The notes beneath the pieces are model-generated. The model worked only from the letters and a program-made list of their open reading frames with translations. It was not told where the DNA came from and made no database searches. Source: SAR86 cluster bacterium SAR86B (GTDB lineage Bacteria > Pseudomonadota > Gammaproteobacteria > Magnimaribacterales > D2472). From it: 64,000 bases of DNA. The stretch is from NCBI GenBank assembly GCA_905181955.1, contig CAJJAC010000010.1:1620-65619 (forward strand), given 5' to 3'. Position numbers and translations under genes: made by a program. Shown here piece by piece: positions 2,328 through 43,371 of this stretch (position 1 is the first letter of the stretch; each line of letters opens with the position of its first letter).

Positions 2328-2346
2328 TTCGTAAGTTGCTTTTTAA

Positions 2347-2363
2347 ATGAGAATGATTATCAT
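2347..2363. promoter_or_regulatory. Fur-box-like 8-1-8 palindrome ATGAGAATgATTATCAT overlapping the predicted promoter of the Fe(III)-binding protein gene
   Basis: One mismatch to the classical Fur core TGATAATnATTATCA. It lies between a TTGCTT -35-like hexamer (2336-2341) and overlaps a TATCAT -10-like hexamer, and ends 29 nt upstream of the ATG. Confidence 0.6.
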
Positions 2364-2391
2364 CTGATTATTCATTTACTTAATTTTAAGA

Positions 2392-3390
2392 ATGAGATTT
2401 TCACAACTATTATGCATTTCAGTTTTATTGGTTTCATGTAGCCAAGCAAAAGATGTAGATCTACTAACCATTTATACATCTAGACAGCCTCAGCTTATAG
2501 AGCCCTTGTTAGAGCAATATAAAGAAAAAACCGGCATAGAGGTTAGATTGCTCTCAGGCAAAGCTCCTCAACTAATGGAAAGAATTGCAGTTGAAAGCGA
2601 TATGACAGAAGCTGATATATTTATGACAGTAGATGCTGGAGTGTTATGGCAAGCTGGTGAAAAAGGAATTCTTGAAGACATAAATTCAAAGATTTTAAAT
2701 GAAAATATACCTGAGCATTTAAGAGATGCTAGCGGCAAATGGTTTGGATTATCAAAAAGAGCTAGAACTATTGTTTATAACTCTGACAAAGTTTCTACTG
2801 ACGAGCTTTCTTCCTATAAAGACTTAGCCGATCCAAAATGGGCTAATAAGCTCTGCTTAAGAACCTCAACTAAAGTCTACAATAGATCACTTATTGCTAG
2901 CATGATAGATGCAGACGGTTATAAAAATACAAAAAACATAGTTCAAGGATGGGTAAATAACCTTGCTACTGAGGTATTTTCAAGTGATACCCAGGTTCTA
3001 AAAGCAGTCTCAGCAGGGCAATGTAATGTAACAATAGTAAATACATATTATTTAGCAAGACTTGCTGATGACCCGACATATTCTAATCTTAAATTGCATT
3101 GGGCAAATCAGGATGGCAGAGGAACTCATGTAAATATTTCTGGTGCGGGAGTTACTAAATATTCTAAAAATAAAGTCGAAGCTACAAAGCTACTGGAATG
3201 GCTTTCATCTGCAGAGGCTCAAGAAACATATGCTGGAGCAAATAAAGAATTTCCTGTCATGGATGGAATAGATGTTGGTCAAATTCTTCAAGGCTGGGGA
3301 TCTTTTAAAGAAGATCTTATTTTAGTAGAAAAGTTAGGCTTACTTCAAAAGGAAGCAGTTCTTTTAGCTCAAGAAGCAGAATATAAATAA
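2392..3390 (+). CDS. Fe(III) ABC transporter periplasmic substrate-binding protein (FbpA/AfuA family), lipobox-like signal LLVSC
   Basis: Length and overall similarity to ferric-binding proteins, including the stretches IYTSRQP, DIFMTVDAG and NTYYLARL. A Fur-like operator lies upstream. No permease or ATPase gene is adjacent. Confidence 0.75.
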   Translation: MRFSQLLCISVLLVSCSQAKDVDLLTIYTSRQPQLIEPLLEQYKEKTGIEVRLLSGKAPQLMERIAVESDMTEADIFMTVDAGVLWQAGEKGILEDINSKILNENIPEHLRDASGKWFGLSKRARTIVYNSDKVSTDELSSYKDLADPKWANKLCLRTSTKVYNRSLIASMIDADGYKNTKNIVQGWVNNLATEVFSSDTQVLKAVSAGQCNVTIVNTYYLARLADDPTYSNLKLHWANQDGRGTHVNISGAGVTKYSKNKVEATKLLEWLSSAEAQETYAGANKEFPVMDGIDVGQILQGWGSFKEDLILVEKLGLLQKEAVLLAQEAEYK

Positions 3391-8639: not shown

Positions 8640-10117
8640 TATTTATTATTCAATTTTTTTCTAATTAAAGGAATCAATTCTGATGCTGCCAGTCCTTTTT
8701 CACCATTTAATTTTACAAATTCACTTCCAGCTATCCCATGTGTTGCTACAGCCAATAGAGAGGCATTATGCGCAGATAATCCCTGAGCTATAAAACTACC
8801 AATTAATCCGGCTAAAATGTCCCCTGTGCCTCCTGTGGCGAGCTCAGGCCCACCTTCTTCACATACAAAGACATCATCATCAGTAGCGATAATTGTTCCA
8901 GCACCTTTAAGAACAATAGTTGCATTATATTTAGCGACTAAATCTTTTGCTGCATTAACTCTGTCAGCTTGTATGTCTTTTGATGATAGACCTAATAGGT
9001 CTGCAGCCTCGCCAGGATGTGGAGTAAGGACAAGAGAATTTTTGACATTTTTTAGACATAAATCATTATTTGCTATGTATCTTAGAGCGCCTGCATCAAA
9101 AACAACTGAGCCACTATTTATTTCTATATGCTCTATAAGTATTTCCATTATTTGTTCAGACCATGAGCTTGCAGATAAGCCAGGACCACAGATAAAAACA
9201 TTTTTATTATCTAAAGCTAAACCAGTTTCTTTAGGCTGATCATGTCCGATGGCCATAATCTCAGGATTGCGACTAAGAGAAGCCTTTAAGTGTATTGGCT
9301 GCGTAAGCAATGAAACTAATCCAGTGCCTGATTTTAAAGCTGCCTCAGCTGCCAATATTGCAGCACCACCCATATTCGTATCACCACCCATTACAAGAGC
9401 ACTTCCATGATCCCCTTTGTGACTATTAGATAATCTTTTCGGTAGTAAGTTTTTTACATCATTAAAGGTATATGAAGTTGCAACTGCTTGACTTTCTTTT
9501 TCCATCTGTAAATTTAAGTTATGAAAATACTTTTCTCCTGCAGCGATTTTACCCTCATTAAGACTTAACCCTAACTTTCTTCCAACAAAACTTATAGTTT
9601 TATTAGCCTCTACATAAGCTTCACAAGCCACCCCAGTATCTGGATGGATACCTGATGGAATATCTATTGAAAAAATATGCTCATAAGAGTTCATAGTTTG
9701 TATTAAATTAATGATGTTCTTATCAAAAGACCCCTTAAGACTTGTTCCAAAAATTGCATCAATTATAAGTACACCACTATCAACTTTATTTAATATCGAT
9801 GGCTTATAAATTAAACCCCTATCATGAGCTTCATTGGAAGCCTCCATACATAAATGACTTTTATTTTTATTCTCTAACGCATCTACTATCTGTACGTCAA
9901 AACCTGCATTAAATAAATATATCCCAACATAGTAACCATCCCCGCCATTATTCCCGGGTCCACAGATACAAATATATTTCTTATGTTTATAATTTTTTGT
10001 AATATATTCTGCAGTGACTTCTGCAGCCTTAAGCATTAGATCTTTATCTAAATTACCTTTGTTAAAGTATGATCTTTCATATTCTTGAACTTGTGAGCTA
10101 AGAAATAACTTATTCAA
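8639..10117 (-). CDS. nnr: Bifunctional NAD(P)H-hydrate epimerase/dehydratase
   Basis: YjeF N-domain (GPGNNGGDGY) plus a C-terminal carbohydrate-kinase-like domain (HKGDHG, GGTGDILAG). Confidence 0.9.
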   Translation of the reverse strand: MNKLFLSSQVQEYERSYFNKGNLDKDLMLKAAEVTAEYITKNYKHKKYICICGPGNNGGDGYYVGIYLFNAGFDVQIVDALENKNKSHLCMEASNEAHDRGLIYKPSILNKVDSGVLIIDAIFGTSLKGSFDKNIINLIQTMNSYEHIFSIDIPSGIHPDTGVACEAYVEANKTISFVGRKLGLSLNEGKIAAGEKYFHNLNLQMEKESQAVATSYTFNDVKNLLPKRLSNSHKGDHGSALVMGGDTNMGGAAILAAEAALKSGTGLVSLLTQPIHLKASLSRNPEIMAIGHDQPKETGLALDNKNVFICGPGLSASSWSEQIMEILIEHIEINSGSVVFDAGALRYIANNDLCLKNVKNSLVLTPHPGEAADLLGLSSKDIQADRVNAAKDLVAKYNATIVLKGAGTIIATDDDVFVCEEGGPELATGGTGDILAGLIGSFIAQGLSAHNASLLAVATHGIAGSEFVKLNGEKGLAASELIPLIRKKLNNK

Positions 10118-21275: not shown

Positions 21276-21803
21276 TTACTTCAATAAGACTATTTGATTT
21301 GCAAAGGCGTCAACTTTCATCCAATCAGTAAATTCGTAGGTTCCTGATGTATCCGTTGGACCTTTAGTCATCCACATGATAAATCTAATCATGTGCTTAT
21401 CTATAAATTTATACTTTGGATAATCTATCTTTCCAGCAAAAACCTCTAAGGCATTAGGCTTCCAAGCTGACAATGAAAGAAATTTCTGCATATAAGGGTT
21501 TGTACTTGGTGTATTTTTCTCTGGTTTTCTTGCAACAACATTTACTGAAAAGAATGCATTTTTTTTAGATTCCAATGTAGAAATATTTTTATCAATGAAT
21601 TTATAAAGCTCAGGTTTGTGTTTCCCATACCTAATGCTTGCACCTATAACTAATTGATCATATTTAAAAAGATCTAATTTATTAGCTTCATCAAGAGAAA
21701 CCACTTCTACGTCATTGATCTTACTTATTACTGAAGCAATCGTATTGCAAATAGTTTTAGTTTGCCCGTCTGTTGTTGAATATATAATTAGAGTTGAAGT
21801 CAT
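21276..21803 (-). CDS. hemG: Quinone-dependent protoporphyrinogen IX dehydrogenase (flavodoxin-like)
   Basis: 175 aa. IYSTTDGQT, GASIRYGKH and SVNVVARKPEKNTP closely mirror E. coli HemG. Confidence 0.85.
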   Translation of the reverse strand: MTSTLIIYSTTDGQTKTICNTIASVISKINDVEVVSLDEANKLDLFKYDQLVIGASIRYGKHKPELYKFIDKNISTLESKKNAFFSVNVVARKPEKNTPSTNPYMQKFLSLSAWKPNALEVFAGKIDYPKYKFIDKHMIRFIMWMTKGPTDTSGTYEFTDWMKVDAFANQIVLLK

Positions 21804-21922
21804 GGCGTCATGGATATTTTTATAGACATATTTTAGCCTTTCCTTCCCAATTATTCAGATCAATTTTGTAATTAGAATAATTATTAACTTAATCTGATAA
21901 AATTGTTTTTATAATTAATATT

Positions 21923-22264
21923 ATGAATACAGAAAATTTAATACAATCCCTTGCTTTAACTGATTCCGCAGTTGAAAGGATAGCTTTAGTAATTAATGCT
22001 GAGAAAAAGTCTAGATTCAGAGTTTATGTAACTGGTGGAGGCTGCTCTGGCTTTCAATACGGTTTTAAATTTGATGATGATGTTGCTTTTGATGATGAGG
22101 TTTTAGATTACAAAGGTTTTTCTGTCTTGCTCGATTCTCTTTCATACCCATACTTATACGGCTCAACTCTAGATTACGTAGAAGATTTATCTGGAGCAAA
22201 ATTTGTTGTTAATAATCCAAATGCAAAAACCACATGCGGATGTGGAGAATCTTTCGCTATATAG
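21923..22264 (+). CDS. erpA: Iron-sulfur cluster insertion protein (A-type carrier)
   Basis: GGGCSGFQY and C-terminal CGCGESF motifs, 113 aa. Confidence 0.9.
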   Translation: MNTENLIQSLALTDSAVERIALVINAEKKSRFRVYVTGGGCSGFQYGFKFDDDVAFDDEVLDYKGFSVLLDSLSYPYLYGSTLDYVEDLSGAKFVVNNPNAKTTCGCGESFAI

Positions 22265-36537: not shown

Positions 36538-36585
36538 TATAGGAGTATGATCAAAATCTAATTTGATTTAATATACAAACTTAAC

Positions 36586-36668
36586 TGCAAAGGGGTGGTC
36601 ATTCTGACCTGAGATCTTCATAGGGACCCTTTGAACCTGATCCATTTAATAATGGCGGAGGAATTGCA
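36586..36668 (+). promoter_or_regulatory. TPP (THI-box) riboswitch
   Basis: TGCAA-AGGGGTGG...CTGAGA...ACCCTTTGAACCTGATCCATTTAATAATGGCGGAGGAA-TTGCA. The conserved GGGGUG, CUGAGA and ACCCUUUGAACCUGAUC...UAAU...GCG.AGG.A blocks are present. P1 is UGCAA/UUGCA. Confidence 0.9.
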
Positions 36669-38776
36669 TGAATATCATCAAAACTAGTCTATTTATTTCT
36701 TTATTTCTTTCTTTTTTTAGTTCTCAATTAATATCTGAAACTATCGAAGAAATTACTATTAAAGGCGATTGGCGTCAAACTTCAGCAGATCAAGAAGATT
36801 CAAGCGTTTTGGTGCTTAATGAGGAAACTATTAAATCTCAGCCTCTTAAACACTTCGAACAACTTTCATATTTAGTACCTAATTTAAATTTTGCAGCCAG
36901 CGATTCAAGAGCGCGTTATTTTCAGATTAGGGGTATTGGAGAGAGATCTGGGTATCAAGGAACTCCTAATTCGTCAGTTGGTTTTCTTATAGATGATATT
37001 GATTATTCAGGACAAGGAGGAATTGCAACAACTTTTGATCTAGATCAAATTGAAATATATAGAGGCCCCCAAGGATCTAGAATTGGTGCGAATGCTTTAG
37101 CTGGACTAATTTATATAAAAACTAAAGATCCAACAGATAAATTTGAAGGGACTAGTGAAGTGACTATAGGATCTTATGGGACTAAAAGTGCAGGTGTTGC
37201 TTTTGGTGGACCTTTTGAAGCAAATAGTGATCTTTCATACAGACTGGTTTTAAGAAAAGATAAATCTAATGGTTATAGAAAAAATTTATATCTCAATAGA
37301 TCAGATACATCAAGAAAGGATGAAACCACCGCTCGCTTAAAAGTGAATTGGAAACTTGATGATAAGACATCAGTTGATTTTTTAGTTATGCAGGTTGATA
37401 TGGATGACCCCGCTGATATTTGGACCTTGGATGGAAGTTTAAATACTCTTTCTGATAGACCAGGAATGGACTCACAAAAGACCAATGCTTATGGATTAAA
37501 AGTATTTCGTGCATTTGATAGCTTTGAACTTCAAAGTCTTTCAAGCTCAACAGATACTAGTGTGGTTTTTAGTTATGATGCTGATTGGGGTAATACAGAC
37601 TCTCATGCACCCTATACATATGACTATTTCTCAGAGACATTAAGAGATAGAAGCTCATTTAGCCAAGAATTTAGACTAGTTTCAGATAAAGCAGACTTTT
37701 TAACCAATAATCTTATTGAATGGGTTGCCGGAATAAACTATTTAGAGTTAAAAGAGACAAATTTGAAATACGACGATGGTATTTACGGCGATCCATCAGA
37801 TCCTTATGGACCTTATACCAGCGAATCATCATCCTCAAGCTCATATAAATCAGAAAACTTGTCATTTTTTGGAAATGTAGATTATCTTCTTTCAGAGTCA
37901 ACGAAGATCTCTTTAGGTTTGAGAATGGAAGACTGGGAGTCAAAATATTTTGATTCTTTTGGAGAGTCTTTTAATCCGTCGAATGATATGTCGGGAGGAA
38001 AAATATCTCTAATAAAAAATATAAAAACTGGATCTAATATTTTTATTAGTATTGCTAAAGGATATAAACAAGGTGGATTCAATCTTGGTTTAGGTTTGGG
38101 TGGCGATGTCACAAATAAAGATCTTACATATGATCCAGAATTTCTTACCAATTATGAAATAGGTATTAACTCAAGAATTTTAGATTCCAGATTAAATATT
38201 GAAAGTGTTGTATTTTATTCTGACAGAGAAGACCAACAAGTTTTAATATCAACTCAAGTAGATCCTAAAGATCCAAATACTTTTTCCTTCTTAACTCAGA
38301 ATGCTGCTGAGGGAGTTAACTATGGATTAGAAATAAATCTTGATATGGAAGTTACGACTGATATTAATATATTTGCTAATGTTGGAATCCTTAAAACTGA
38401 AATAAAAAATTGGCAGTCTCGACCTGACCTTGAAGGAAGAGCACAAGCACATGCTCCAGAAAAAAGTTTTGCACTTGGCATAAATTGGTCTCTAACATCA
38501 AAGACTTATCTGTCAGCTGATGTGACAGGCAAGAGTGAATTTTATTACTCAGATTCTCATAATAATAAATCTAAGTCATATAACTTAATGAATATTAATT
38601 ATGGCTATAAAAATAAAGATTGGAGCTATACCTTATGGGTAAGAAATGTCTTTGATACCTACTATTCAGTAAGAGGTTTTTACTTTGGAAATGAGGCACC
38701 AAATTTTGAAGATACATTATATGAGAGACATGGAGATCCTAGGCACTCTGGAGTGTCAGTAAGATATGATTTCTAG
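36668..38776 (+). CDS. TonB-dependent outer-membrane receptor, TPP-riboswitch regulated (thiamine or precursor uptake)
   Basis: Signal peptide, TonB-box/plug region (IEEITIKGD...IEIYRGPQG), C-terminal ...VRYDF beta-barrel terminus. Confidence 0.9.
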   Translation: MNIIKTSLFISLFLSFFSSQLISETIEEITIKGDWRQTSADQEDSSVLVLNEETIKSQPLKHFEQLSYLVPNLNFAASDSRARYFQIRGIGERSGYQGTPNSSVGFLIDDIDYSGQGGIATTFDLDQIEIYRGPQGSRIGANALAGLIYIKTKDPTDKFEGTSEVTIGSYGTKSAGVAFGGPFEANSDLSYRLVLRKDKSNGYRKNLYLNRSDTSRKDETTARLKVNWKLDDKTSVDFLVMQVDMDDPADIWTLDGSLNTLSDRPGMDSQKTNAYGLKVFRAFDSFELQSLSSSTDTSVVFSYDADWGNTDSHAPYTYDYFSETLRDRSSFSQEFRLVSDKADFLTNNLIEWVAGINYLELKETNLKYDDGIYGDPSDPYGPYTSESSSSSSYKSENLSFFGNVDYLLSESTKISLGLRMEDWESKYFDSFGESFNPSNDMSGGKISLIKNIKTGSNIFISIAKGYKQGGFNLGLGLGGDVTNKDLTYDPEFLTNYEIGINSRILDSRLNIESVVFYSDREDQQVLISTQVDPKDPNTFSFLTQNAAEGVNYGLEINLDMEVTTDINIFANVGILKTEIKNWQSRPDLEGRAQAHAPEKSFALGINWSLTSKTYLSADVTGKSEFYYSDSHNNKSKSYNLMNINYGYKNKDWSYTLWVRNVFDTYYSVRGFYFGNEAPNFEDTLYERHGDPRHSGVSVRYDF

Positions 38777-39353
38777 CTTGCTTAATCCTTTTTGGTTGGA
38801 GGTAATAGCGGTAATATTCGCTATAATCTATCTTTTATTGGCTGTAAAAAAAGATGTAAGATGTTGGTATGCGGCAATATTAAGTTCAAGTCTGTATTTC
38901 TTCATAATGTTATCAGCAAACCTATATATGGAAGCATATTTGCAAATATTCTACATATTAATGGCAATTTATGGATGGTTCCAATGGAATAAAGTCGATG
39001 AATATAATAATAAATTTATTGTAAAAACTTGGAGTATTAAACGGCATGTTATTGTCATTTCATCTATATTTATATCGGCATATGTGTCAGGTAGTTTATT
39101 AAATATATATACAGATGCAGCATTACCATTCATAGATGCCTTTACAACATGGGGAGCAATAATTGCTACATACATGGTGGCTAAAAAATTATTAGAGAAC
39201 TGGATATATTGGTTTGTAATAGATTCAATATCAGTACTAGTATTTATGTCACGTGGATTATTCTTAACTTCAATATTATTTTTTATCTATCTTATAATTA
39301 TTTATTATGGATATAAGTCCTGGTCAAAAATAAAATACGAAATGAATGCTTAA
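38766..39353 (+). CDS. pnuT: PnuC-family facilitator, predicted thiamine transporter PnuT
   Basis: 195 aa with 7 TM-like segments. PnuC-type W-rich motifs (YGWFQW, WIYWFVIDS). Overlaps the receptor gene by 11 nt within the riboswitch operon. Confidence 0.75.
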   Translation: MISSLLNPFWLEVIAVIFAIIYLLLAVKKDVRCWYAAILSSSLYFFIMLSANLYMEAYLQIFYILMAIYGWFQWNKVDEYNNKFIVKTWSIKRHVIVISSIFISAYVSGSLLNIYTDAALPFIDAFTTWGAIIATYMVAKKLLENWIYWFVIDSISVLVFMSRGLFLTSILFFIYLIIIYYGYKSWSKIKYEMNA

Positions 39354-40170
39354 CATACAAAAAAAACTTAATTCAGTTTCAGAGAACATAGAATTAAAAG
39401 ATGAAATAAAATCAGGACCTCTTTCAAAAATTTTCTTATGTAATTTTAATAATATCAAATCAATTATAAGATTTGATTTATCACTAGTATCTAAATTAAA
39501 AATAGATCGTAGTAACGAAATTAATATTCTTAAGGAAATAGGTTATTTAAATCTAGCGCCAAATATTCTTTATACAAATCTTAATAAAGGAATTTTGATA
39601 TGGGAATATATTCCAGGTACCGAGCTATCGATAACTAAAAAAAATCATGATATTGTTTTAAATGATTTAGGTAGAGTCTTAAAAAAAGTACATCAATTCA
39701 AGCTACCTAAAAAAAATACAAAAGAGTTTAATCAATCAATTAGTTTCTATAAAAATTTACTAAGTAATTCATCAGATCAAACAATAATCAATAAAGGCCT
39801 GACTCTTTATGATGAAATTTTGGATGATAATCTACCTAATGTTTTTAGTCACAATGATCTAAATAAATCCAATCTTTTAATAAGCAATAAAATACATTTT
39901 TTAGATTGGGAATACGCAAGCATGAACCATCCTTATTTTGATATTGCATCACTTGTAGTTGCTTTAAATTTAAATTCAGAAGGAATTAATAAATTATGGC
40001 AAGGTTACTCTGGCGATTCATCATTTCTTGATCAGAGCAAACTGAATAGGTGGATTAATTTTACTTATTACCTAGATTATTTGTGGAGAAGATCTATTGT
40101 CGAATTAGACGATTCTTATACCAATAGCATGCAATTAGATGAATTTGAGAGCTTTTTACTTAAATTATAG
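39346..40170 (+). CDS. thiK: Thiamine-kinase-like phosphotransferase (APH/choline-kinase fold)
   Basis: HNDLNKSNLL (HxDxxxxN catalytic loop) and FLDWEYA (DxE) motifs. 274 aa. Overlaps pnuT by 8 nt. Confidence 0.7.
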   Translation: MLNIQKKLNSVSENIELKDEIKSGPLSKIFLCNFNNIKSIIRFDLSLVSKLKIDRSNEINILKEIGYLNLAPNILYTNLNKGILIWEYIPGTELSITKKNHDIVLNDLGRVLKKVHQFKLPKKNTKEFNQSISFYKNLLSNSSDQTIINKGLTLYDEILDDNLPNVFSHNDLNKSNLLISNKIHFLDWEYASMNHPYFDIASLVVALNLNSEGINKLWQGYSGDSSFLDQSKLNRWINFTYYLDYLWRRSIVELDDSYTNSMQLDEFESFLLKL

Positions 40171-41561: not shown

Positions 41562-42317
41562 TTAAGCATTACTAGATTCTTTAACTGCTACATGCCAGAT
41601 AACTAGACCAAATAGAATCTTGTTAACAAAGTCAGCAAGATTATAAACTAGGTTTAAGTTCTGAGCATATATATTGCTACCATCACCCATTAGGTAACCA
41701 GCAGCATATCCAAGTGGGTAAATAGCCCAACCAACAACAATGATCATCATCATTGCGTTATAAGCAGAGTTTACAGCAGGACTTGCAGTTTTTACTGCTG
41801 CCTTACCTTCACCCATGTATAACACTTGAATCATGTATAACCATCCAGCCATACCAATAGCAAAAGCAAGCGTGACATTCATCATTCCAGCTTCACCCAT
41901 GAAACCAAATCCTAACATTACAAGAGAACCGCCAAGCAGCTTCTTAAATAATGAACCAGCAACTGAAGTACAAGCTGCAAGGATTAGATAGAATTCAACC
42001 ATTTGTAATGGAACAGTTAGCAACCAATCAATATATCTAAATACTGTCGGCGTAGCACCTGTATCAACCCAAACACCTCTCATATAGAGATAATGCCAGA
42101 ATGCAATACCGGTAATTAAACCAGCAACTGTTAGTGATGTTTTCCACTTAGCACTTACTTGATCTCTTTCAACAAAGAAAAATACCGTTGCAGCAAGCAT
42201 AGCAGCAGTAACAAGCCAGAAAGATATTCCAACCGTATCAGTAATACTTAAATCACCGCCACCTGCAGCGAATGATGGAAGTGCAATCGCACTCGTCAAT
42301 AATAATAACAATTTCAT
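41562..42317 (-). CDS. Proteorhodopsin, proton-pumping DTE type, predicted blue-absorbing (Gln105)
   Basis: Signal peptide, then RYIDWLLTVPLQMVEF with D97/T101/E108 and Q105, H75 in FWHY, and the retinal lysine in ADFVNKILFG. From memory, it is very close to SAR86-type proteorhodopsin. Confidence 0.95.
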   Translation of the reverse strand: MKLLLLLTSAIALPSFAAGGGDLSITDTVGISFWLVTAAMLAATVFFFVERDQVSAKWKTSLTVAGLITGIAFWHYLYMRGVWVDTGATPTVFRYIDWLLTVPLQMVEFYLILAACTSVAGSLFKKLLGGSLVMLGFGFMGEAGMMNVTLAFAIGMAGWLYMIQVLYMGEGKAAVKTASPAVNSAYNAMMMIIVVGWAIYPLGYAAGYLMGDGSNIYAQNLNLVYNLADFVNKILFGLVIWHVAVKESSNA

Positions 42318-42367
42318 ATACTACCCCCAGTAGTTCAATAAGAAATAACATAATTTCTTAAATATTA

Positions 42368-42386
42368 GATGAGAATAATTCTCATC
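42368..42386. promoter_or_regulatory. Perfect 9-1-9 palindrome GATGAGAATaATTCTCATC (Fur-box-like) over the predicted proteorhodopsin transcription start
   Basis: It lies immediately downstream of a consensus TATAAT on the minus strand (42394-42399), and its near edge is 51 nt upstream of the ATG. The 17-nt core is 15/17 identical to the site at 2347-2363. Confidence 0.5.
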
Positions 42387-42579
42387 GACATTAATTATAT
42401 TGAATTTAGCTAATAAACTAAAGTATTAATAAAATAACGTATCTTACTGTTATATATAATATTTATATATATAAGATATCTTCTGGATGCTCTCTTAAAA
42501 TGTTTTTGTTATATTGTAATTAAGCTCATCTATTTAAATACAATATGACATCTAAAAAAGATTTTTACTGGAATGAAAT

Positions 42580-43371
42580 ATGAAATACATAGCAACATTA
42601 ATACTATCATTTAACTTCTTTTTTGTTCACGCAGAATCATTAGAATTCTTGGAAGCAGAGGTGCTCTCGTTAAAAAACTCTAGTCCTGAAAGGATTCTTT
42701 TTGTGGGTAATAGTTATCTTTACTATAACGATAGTCTTCATAATCATTTAAGAAGAATGGCAGAGGAACAGAATCCTGAGAGAAAAGAGTTCTTTGGTTA
42801 TAAATCTGCAACCATAGGCGGCTCTAGGTTGGCGCATCATAATTTAGATCATTTGCTTGATTCTAAAAATATTGGAATCAATAAACCATTTCAATTAGTT
42901 ATTTTGCAAGGTGGAAGTGCAGAGGTTCTAGATAAGGCTGCAAGAAAATCTTTTAATCTAAATGCAAAAAAAATGATTGCTAAAATTAAAGATAGTGGAG
43001 GAGAGGCATTGCTTTACATGACGCATCCGTATGTTCCACCTCATAAGCTATATGACCCAAGGATGATAGAGAAAATAAGATACACCTATATAAAAGCAGC
43101 AAATGATTACGATGCCTTGGTTGCCCCAATTGGTATTGCATACATAAATGCTTACAAGGCAAGACCTGATATTCAGCTTCATAAATCTTATGATGGTAGT
43201 CACCCAGATATTCTTGGAACTTATCTTTCAGCATGCGTTCTTTATACAACCATTTTTAAGAAGCCATCTTCAGAAGTTCAATATAATTACTTTGGCGAGA
43301 TTAGCAATGAAGATCAAAAATTTCTCCAAGATATAGCTGATATGACCGTGAAAGACTTTTTTGATAGATAA
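42580..43371 (+). CDS. Secreted SGNH/GDSL-like hydrolase-fold protein
   Basis: Signal peptide. FVGNSY block I-like motif and DGSHP (DxxH) block V-like motif. Confidence 0.5.
   Translation: MKYIATLILSFNFFFVHAESLEFLEAEVLSLKNSSPERILFVGNSYLYYNDSLHNHLRRMAEEQNPERKEFFGYKSATIGGSRLAHHNLDHLLDSKNIGINKPFQLVILQGGSAEVLDKAARKSFNLNAKKMIAKIKDSGGEALLYMTHPYVPPHKLYDPRMIEKIRYTYIKAANDYDALVAPIGIAYINAYKARPDIQLHKSYDGSHPDILGTYLSACVLYTTIFKKPSSEVQYNYFGEISNEDQKFLQDIADMTVKDFFDR

Follow-up and report, generated by a model that had tools for sequence, protein, structure and literature searches.

The promoter of the proteorhodopsin (PR) gene in a stretch of 64,000 nucleotides of SAR86 DNA (hereafter the window) carries a 19-bp palindrome, GATGAGAATAATTCTCATC, that recurs in similar form at the promoter of fbpA, a gene for a periplasmic ferric-iron binding protein. 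Comparison with related genomes suggests that this palindrome acts as the DNA operator of an iron-sensing repressor of the Fur family, most likely Fur itself, which would repress PR when iron is replete. We put the probability of this reading at roughly 0.6. The broader proposition, that PR in one cosmopolitan SAR86 subclade truly belongs, together with fbpA, to a minimal Fur regulon for iron starvation, appears to us an even bet.

The presumptive operator is a perfect 9-1-9 inverted repeat situated within the 262-nt spacer between the PR gene and a divergently oriented DUF4886 gene (42580-43371, plus strand). Its near edge lies about 50-51 nt from the PR initiation codon. A previous reading of the window from its sequence alone (the sequence-only reading) had described the perfect symmetry of the repeat, the TATAAT hexamer on the minus strand and the 51-nt distance to the ATG; all three were confirmed by the sequence. 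On the PR strand, the box begins 7 nt past the TATAAT hexamer and hence covers the expected transcription start site, whose position is a prediction. In most relatives the −10 hexamer reads TATACT, and the block surrounding the candidate −35 hexamer, CTTTAGTTTAT, is partially conserved. The −35 motif is weak and a strict consensus scanner did not call the promoter. Relative to the Fur 7-1-7 consensus, TGATAATnATTATCA, the PR box shows two mismatches and the fbpA box one, the same figures as those of the sequence-only reading. The coordinates of all elements are given in Table 1.

Table 1. Position of the PR and fbpA genes in the window and of their predicted regulatory elements.
Feature	Position	Strand	Remarks
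Predicted Fur-type operator of PR promoter	42368..42386	.	7-1-7 core 42370-42384
Predicted −10 hexamer TATAAT of PR promoter	42394..42399	-	Sequence and conserved alignment columns
Candidate −35 hexamer TTTAGT	42417..42422	-	3/6 to consensus, 17 nt upstream of −10; weak
PR 5′ leader 3′ of box	42318..42367	-	Two conserved hairpins, 42360-42339 and 42334-42320
PR gene, 251 aa, blue-absorbing type	41562..42317	-	Pfam Bac_rhodopsin, E 1e-42
Second operator, AATGAGAATGATTATCATC, upstream of fbpA	2346..2364	.	7-1-7 core 2348-2362
Predicted fbpA promoter	2336..2363	+	−35 TTGCTT (2336-2341), 16-nt spacer, −10 TATCAT (2358-2363); inferred
fbpA/futA-type periplasmic Fe3+-binding protein gene	2392..3390	+	Orphan SBP, ubiH-like gene to rpmB

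The product of the gene downstream from the first box is readily recognized as a proteorhodopsin. Its best match among PDB entries is the blue-light-absorbing PR 4KLY (E 7e-136, full-length alignment). The segments RYIDWL, QMVEF and FVNKIL are all seen in the alignment of the two proteins, which provides the equivalents of the key residues D97, E108 and K231 as well as of the tuning residue Q105. The functional roles of these four residues are established. The presence of a glutamine at the tuning position (TVPLQMVEF), combined with 4KLY being the closest structure, identifies the protein as a blue-tuned pump of the open-ocean type. In this it differs from the original SAR86 PR, which is of the green type.

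The second box overlies the spacer and the −10 hexamer of the predicted fbpA promoter, which the strict scanner also failed to call. The 17-mer at 2347-2363, ATGAGAATGATTATCAT, matches the core of the PR box at 15 of 17 positions; both this identity and the overlap with the −10 hexamer had been noticed in the sequence-only reading and hold. One arm of the fbpA box contains the GAGAAT motif found at PR, the other the classical GATAAT. The same combination is found in the PR site of one distant relative (locus L038), which indicates that the recognised half-site is GA[G/T]AAT. The downstream gene had been annotated in the sequence-only reading as specifying a periplasmic Fe3+-binding protein, and is, from its matches, clearly a true FbpA/FutA-type gene for such a protein. 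The protein aligns over its full length with PDB entries 7li0 (substrate-binding protein of an Fe(3+) ABC transporter; E 7e-98), 6g7n, 2pt1 (FutA1) and 1q35 (FbpA), and its homologues are named "iron(III) transport system substrate-binding protein" in the source records; its scores fall below the NCBIfam equivalog cut-offs. The pepP-ubiH-fbpA-rpmB gene order is syntenic across SAR86. No permease or ATPase gene adjoins fbpA in any of the SAR86 loci seen (the window and L098-L105). Given this orphan condition, the fbpBC genes must lie elsewhere, and they may or may not share the box.

The box is a conserved feature of the fbpA promoter. It was found at position −48/−49 of fbpA in three FbpA lineages (the window type and those designated the 81% and 79% types), on more than 20 contigs. 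FbpA proteins in these lineages are 79-97% identical at the amino acid level and the sequences flanking the box have diverged, the box itself being identical or nearly so. Each lineage has its own −35-like hexamer, TTGCTT, TTGATT or TTTACT, which together with the −10 hexamer TATCAT brackets the box, so that the latter covers the spacer and the −10 in each case. At 69% FbpA identity a single arm survives (AATGCAATTGATTATCATT), and no box is present upstream of the gene in the SAR86 lineages compared whose FbpA is 64-67% identical. A metagenome scan for FbpA returned 8 close relatives only.

Considered in isolation, the window provides weak statistical evidence, near chance. Expectations were derived from second-order Markov simulations at the composition of the window (GC content about 33%). 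Perfect 9-1-9 palindromes are expected 0.85 times per 64 kb and one was observed; sites with up to two mismatches to the Fur 7-1-7 consensus are expected about twice per 64 kb and two were observed. For these reasons, neither the rarity of the palindrome nor its match to the Fur consensus was retained as a stand-alone argument. A second site within two differences of the first over 17 positions is less expected (0.055), and both boxes fall within the intergenic 5% of the window. If only the window were considered, the closeness of expected and observed values would lend some credit to the idea that two AT-rich palindromes resemble each other and the Fur consensus by accident. This idea is made negligible by the conservation of the sites and their exclusive placement over 1.67 Mb and dozens of genomes, as described below. 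From the sequences compared, the pattern is clearly non-random only once the related genomes are added.

A scan of one genome per species yielded PR orthologs, 57-93% identical, at 80 loci of about 20 kb each; almost all of these loci carry the SAR86 label. Together with the window they make up 1.43 Mb; the total DNA scanned, mainly from SAR86, amounted to 1.67 Mb. Searching the 1.43 Mb for TGAGAATNATTCTCA with no more than one mismatch gave 16 matches. Eleven of them lie within 200 nt upstream of a PR gene (window, L001, L003, L005-L010, L031 and L038), one is at fbpA and the remaining four represent a single orthologous site inside the xseA gene. A position weight matrix (PWM) was built from the sites. 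The sites themselves score between 20.9 and 28.8 bits, the PR and fbpA boxes of the window reaching 27 and 26 bits, respectively. The best site other than at PR and fbpA scores 16.1 bits in the PR loci, and the best outside the two promoters in the entire 1.67 Mb scores 17.2 bits. Scores of 20 bits or more were obtained at these two promoters only and every high-scoring copy of TGAGAATnATTCTCA belongs to one or the other. Checks named in the sequence-only reading came out in its favour. The motif exceeds background, with 12 of the 16 matches at PR or fbpA promoters and no other PWM site above 17.2 bits. For enrichment at iron genes the outcome is partial: the box is conserved at fbpA, the one iron-uptake gene within reach. 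Weaker matches were considered as further members of the regulon and dismissed as coding or unconvincing, among them the 16.1-bit site (in L024) and the 17.2-bit site (inside a DUF5916 gene). Contigs extending the window contained no regulator gene and no new boxes.

As to another check of the sequence-only reading, the box is conserved upstream of PR in the closest relatives; in all, it precedes the gene in 10 other species-level genomes. Alignment of the seven promoters with the architecture of the window showed the arms TGAGAAT/ATTCTCA to be invariant. The centre base (T, G or C) and the stretch of 7-9 nt between the −10 hexamer and the box vary freely among the same promoters. The gene on the upstream side of PR differs from one genome to the next: it encodes a DUF4886 protein in the window and L006, a sodium:solute symporter (SSF) in L001, L005, L009 and L010, a co-directional TonB receptor in L003 and L007, malonyl-CoA decarboxylase (accompanied by a tRNA gene) in L031 and HtpG (again with a tRNA gene) in L038. 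Since the neighbours change and the box stays, the box follows PR. A role of the box in serving the divergent DUF4886 gene was ruled out on the same grounds. The TonB receptors adjacent to PR in L003 and L007 are not recognisably of the iron type and have no box upstream. In several distant SAR86 lineages, the two isolated box-bearing loci among them, PR directly adjoins a tRNA gene (L031, 5025-5100; L038, about 9683-9770; L066/L067), an arrangement compatible with PR and its operator having moved as a cassette into tRNA-adjacent sites.

Occurrence of the box is restricted. It is present in 11 and absent from 70 of the 81 PR promoters, and in the PR tree the genes that have it form one subclade, plus the isolated L031 and L038. 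As judged from these sequences, the box is confined to one SAR86 subclade, where PR would be a new target of a known regulator. The box was lost in L002, L004 and L020 and is eroded in L015; degenerate copies are found in L022 and L037. The remnants in box-less relatives suggest that sister species have variously gained and lost the site or let it decay. For example, L020 has TGATAATAATTGCAATAATCATT, with classical GATAAT hexamers, at the equivalent position (9890-9915), the eroded copy in L015 (9880-9900) is of the L007 type, and L041-L046 carry TGCGAATAATTTTGTCA overlapping a TTGTCA −35 motif (about 9870-9890).

Two promoter and leader architectures retain the box, one with the box at −69 and the other with it at −115. 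The second is found in L003 and L007, where 6 nt separate the box from a TTGATA-17-TACTAT promoter downstream and the leader is different. These two loci and L038 have the box upstream of the −35 motif, ending 6-17 nt before the hexamer. Such a placement is not the classical geometry for repression and could result in activation or in a weaker effect. One might therefore suppose that Fur does bind the box without PR being simply induced by starvation, and that it acts, especially in these lineages, as an activator, an anti-silencer or a fine-tuning factor. Activation by Fur from upstream sites is known in Neisseria. We think this quite unlikely as a general explanation: in the clade of the window the box comes right after the predicted −10 hexamer and at fbpA it sits on top of it, both being repression geometries, and because an uptake gene has this motif too, PR would be expected to be regulated with the same sign.

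The palindrome might instead operate as RNA, either as a leader stem stabilising or attenuating the PR mRNA or as the terminator of the upstream gene. A terminator scan did flag the box (8-bp stem, 3-nt loop, T-rich tail), and the PR box folds at −8.9 kcal/mol (z −3.4). Furthermore, in L003 (9880-9910) the palindrome extends to a perfect 15-1-15 repeat, ACTTTTAATGAGAATCATTCTCATTAAAAGT, right after the TonB receptor gene, whose stop codon is overlapped by the initial bases of the repeat. L007, with a receptor ORF in two pieces, lacks this extension. The pattern of variation argues against this interpretation. No covariation was detected over 13 distinct sites, in which 84.6% of the cells pair as compared to 85.6% in shuffled controls, and changes that do occur break pairs, as exemplified by pair 6-14, unpaired in 4 of the 13 sites. 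A G/A mismatch interrupts the stem of the fbpA copy midway and is conserved, and this copy folds no better than shuffled sequences (z −0.7). Terminator function is contradicted by the stem having only three GC pairs and by the restriction of the T-rich tail to the window-type leader. Moreover, the box of L003 and L007 lies upstream of the PR promoter and is consequently outside the PR transcript, and two unrelated genes have in common the sequence itself beyond its ability to pair. On the strength of the covariation counts and of the fbpA fold, a role as an RNA hairpin or terminator was rejected as very unlikely. Arms conserved in sequence without compensatory changes are what is expected of a DNA operator.

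The segment between the box and the PR start codon has structural features of its own. It is near-invariant in an alignment of seven relatives and its RNA is predicted to fold at −18.8 kcal/mol (z −3.3). The second of the two leader hairpins, CUACUGGGGGUAG, displays a GGGGG Shine-Dalgarno sequence (G5) in its loop. No family was matched in an Rfam search of the leader. Most SAR86 PR leader types seen (L001-L080) retain a GGGGG(A/G) motif beside a hairpin, which suggests an element for translational control or mRNA stability.

Which protein would recognise the box? The Fur box derived from Fur-regulated genes of the gammaproteobacterium Xanthomonas campestris, AATGAgAATcATTctCATT (Blanvillain et al. 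2007, PMC1790865), is a 19-bp 9-1-9 repeat with GAGAAT arms, like the box described here; the PR site of L003 is identical to it at 19 of 19 positions and that of the window at 16 of 19. In Xanthomonas, the box is found upstream of Fur-regulated iron-uptake genes, namely those for TonB receptors and fecI (PMC1790865), whereas here the candidate box is found at rhodopsin and fbpA genes of a streamlined marine lineage. Similar boxes have been described in Enterococcus faecalis, where TGAGAATGATTCTCA precedes EF3082-85, an iron ABC operon whose derepression in a fur mutant amounts to 12-18-fold, and TGAGAACGATTCTCA precedes feoAB (PMC6056675). The likeness to the E. faecalis boxes and to the Bacillus subtilis 7-1-7 motif includes an identical 15-bp core; these organisms, however, are Firmicutes and the targets are iron ABC transporters and feoAB rather than a phototrophy gene. 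Fur boxes of Listeria include GAgAATGATTATC. The classical 19-bp Fur box of Escherichia coli, GATAATGATAATCATTATC, is likewise an AT-rich palindrome placed over iron-uptake promoters, with the same repression logic as proposed here, but in the 19-bp register only 13 (PR) or 12 (fbpA) of the 19 positions agree and the likeness is clearer in the 7-1-7 form. The Irr ICE box of Alphaproteobacteria (TTTAGAA-N3-TTCTAAA) is also a Fur-family operator with a GAA-N3-TTC centre, and differs by one base per half-site. Its outer bases are different, ICE-type flanks are not conserved in the present sites and Irr is not known in Gammaproteobacteria.

Together, the matches to published Fur boxes and the nature of the fbpA target make Fur the most economical candidate for the regulator. 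Conceivably, the operator is real and its binder responds to another signal. The binder would then be a Fur-family paralog (Mur, Zur, PerR or Irr-like) or an unrelated dimeric repressor, and PR and fbpA would be co-regulated by, for instance, oxidative or light stress or manganese, not by iron. PR is indeed a light-related gene, and SAR86 PR transcripts cycle over the day. Also in line with such a regulator, the half-site GAGAA-N3-TTCTC is intermediate between the Fur form, GATAA-N3-TTATC, and the Irr ICE form, TAGAA-N3-TTCTA, and no regulator gene was detected by tblastn with E. coli Fur in the window and the 80 loci (about 20 kb per genome). Neither Fur nor K03711 is listed in the supplements to the paper on a SAR86 isolate. 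Conversely, fbpA, the second target, encodes a protein that binds ferric iron and is a canonical target of Fur; precisely this motif has been described as a Fur box in Xanthomonas and through the Enterococcus fur mutant; and the fbpA site joins a GAGAAT arm to a classical GATAAT arm. We regard a signal other than iron as unlikely. As to the proposal of the sequence-only reading that PR belongs to the Fur iron regulon, the comparative data support it, the consensus match on which it drew is at chance level in this AT-rich window and its reach is limited to 11 of the 81 PR loci; that Fur is the binding protein, that it represses and that cells benefit in the manner envisaged below we infer.

Under the model of repression by Fur, dimers of Fe2+-Fur would occupy the PR and fbpA boxes when iron is sufficient, blocking access of RNA polymerase. 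Iron scarcity would release Fur from the DNA, and the cell would turn on its light-driven proton pump and its uptake of ferric iron at the same time. The benefit could be that PR replaces iron-costly respiration, or that it powers iron uptake through TonB and ABC systems. TonB receptors are numerous in SAR86, whose only two ABC uptake systems of the SBP type include one for ferric iron (PMC3358033).

No Fur box coupled to a PR promoter was found in the literature searched, which covered few of the subscription journals; to that extent, the impression conveyed by the sequence-only reading that the link is new stands. The work of Koedooder et al. (2020) reportedly dealt with PR of Photobacterium angustum S14 under iron limitation. 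A Fur "energy regulon" in SAR11 was a speculation of Steindler et al. (2011), who found no classical Fur boxes there (PMC3090418). In a 2025 paper that cites Koedooder et al. (2020), the part played by PR in the Fe metabolism of bacteria is described as "unclear" (PMC11833320), and another article lists the same study among those in which regulation of PR expression was seen in connection with iron limitation (PMC9040609). The SAR11 and P. angustum S14 studies were earlier efforts to relate PR-bearing bacteria to Fur or iron; neither is known to report an operator at a PR promoter. Iron-regulated rhodopsins are documented in diatoms, and induction of rhodopsins by iron limitation in eukaryotic phytoplankton (PMC10627834, PMC10523587). 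The physiological idea there is the one proposed here: with the iron-rich energy machinery limited by iron, the cell resorts to a retinal proton pump. The phytoplankton are eukaryotes with other regulatory machinery and no Fur operator, and the evidence comes from expression and physiology, as opposed to the cis-regulatory sequences considered in SAR86.

If correct, our interpretation would for the first time connect rhodopsin phototrophy in bacteria with iron status at the cis-regulatory level. What purpose PR serves in abundant and mostly uncultured marine heterotrophs is still being asked, with regard to iron limitation as well, and a conserved operator in a widespread SAR86 group makes the iron link concretely testable. 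Sister species with no box (L002, L004 and L020) or an eroded one (L015) offer a natural control for the tuning of light harvesting by iron in marine heterotrophs. Were the link confirmed, the capture of light energy by a major group of bacterioplankton would vary with iron supply, which matters for the cycling of carbon and iron where the ocean is poor in iron and which would parallel the iron-regulated rhodopsins of diatoms.

Besides the two promoters, one other intergenic match to the box was seen in the window. The 19-mer AATTAGAATAATTATTAAC, at 21870-21888, lies in the divergent spacer (21804-21922) between hemG (menaquinone-dependent protoporphyrinogen oxidase; 21276-21803, minus strand) and erpA (Fe-S insertion protein; 21923-22264, plus strand). 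It scores 9 bits and is too weak to call. With respect to the coherence of the putative regulon, fbpA has the box and the only TonB receptor gene of the window does not. This receptor gene (36668-38776) is the first of three genes preceded by a TPP riboswitch (Rfam RF00059, 68 bits) at 36581-36680 on the plus strand, the others encoding a PnuC-type transporter (38766-39353) and a choline/APH-family kinase (39346-40170). The group looks like an operon for uptake and salvage of thiamine, or a precursor, through an outer-membrane TonB receptor, and the position of the receptor gene behind the riboswitch accounts for its lacking a Fur-type box.
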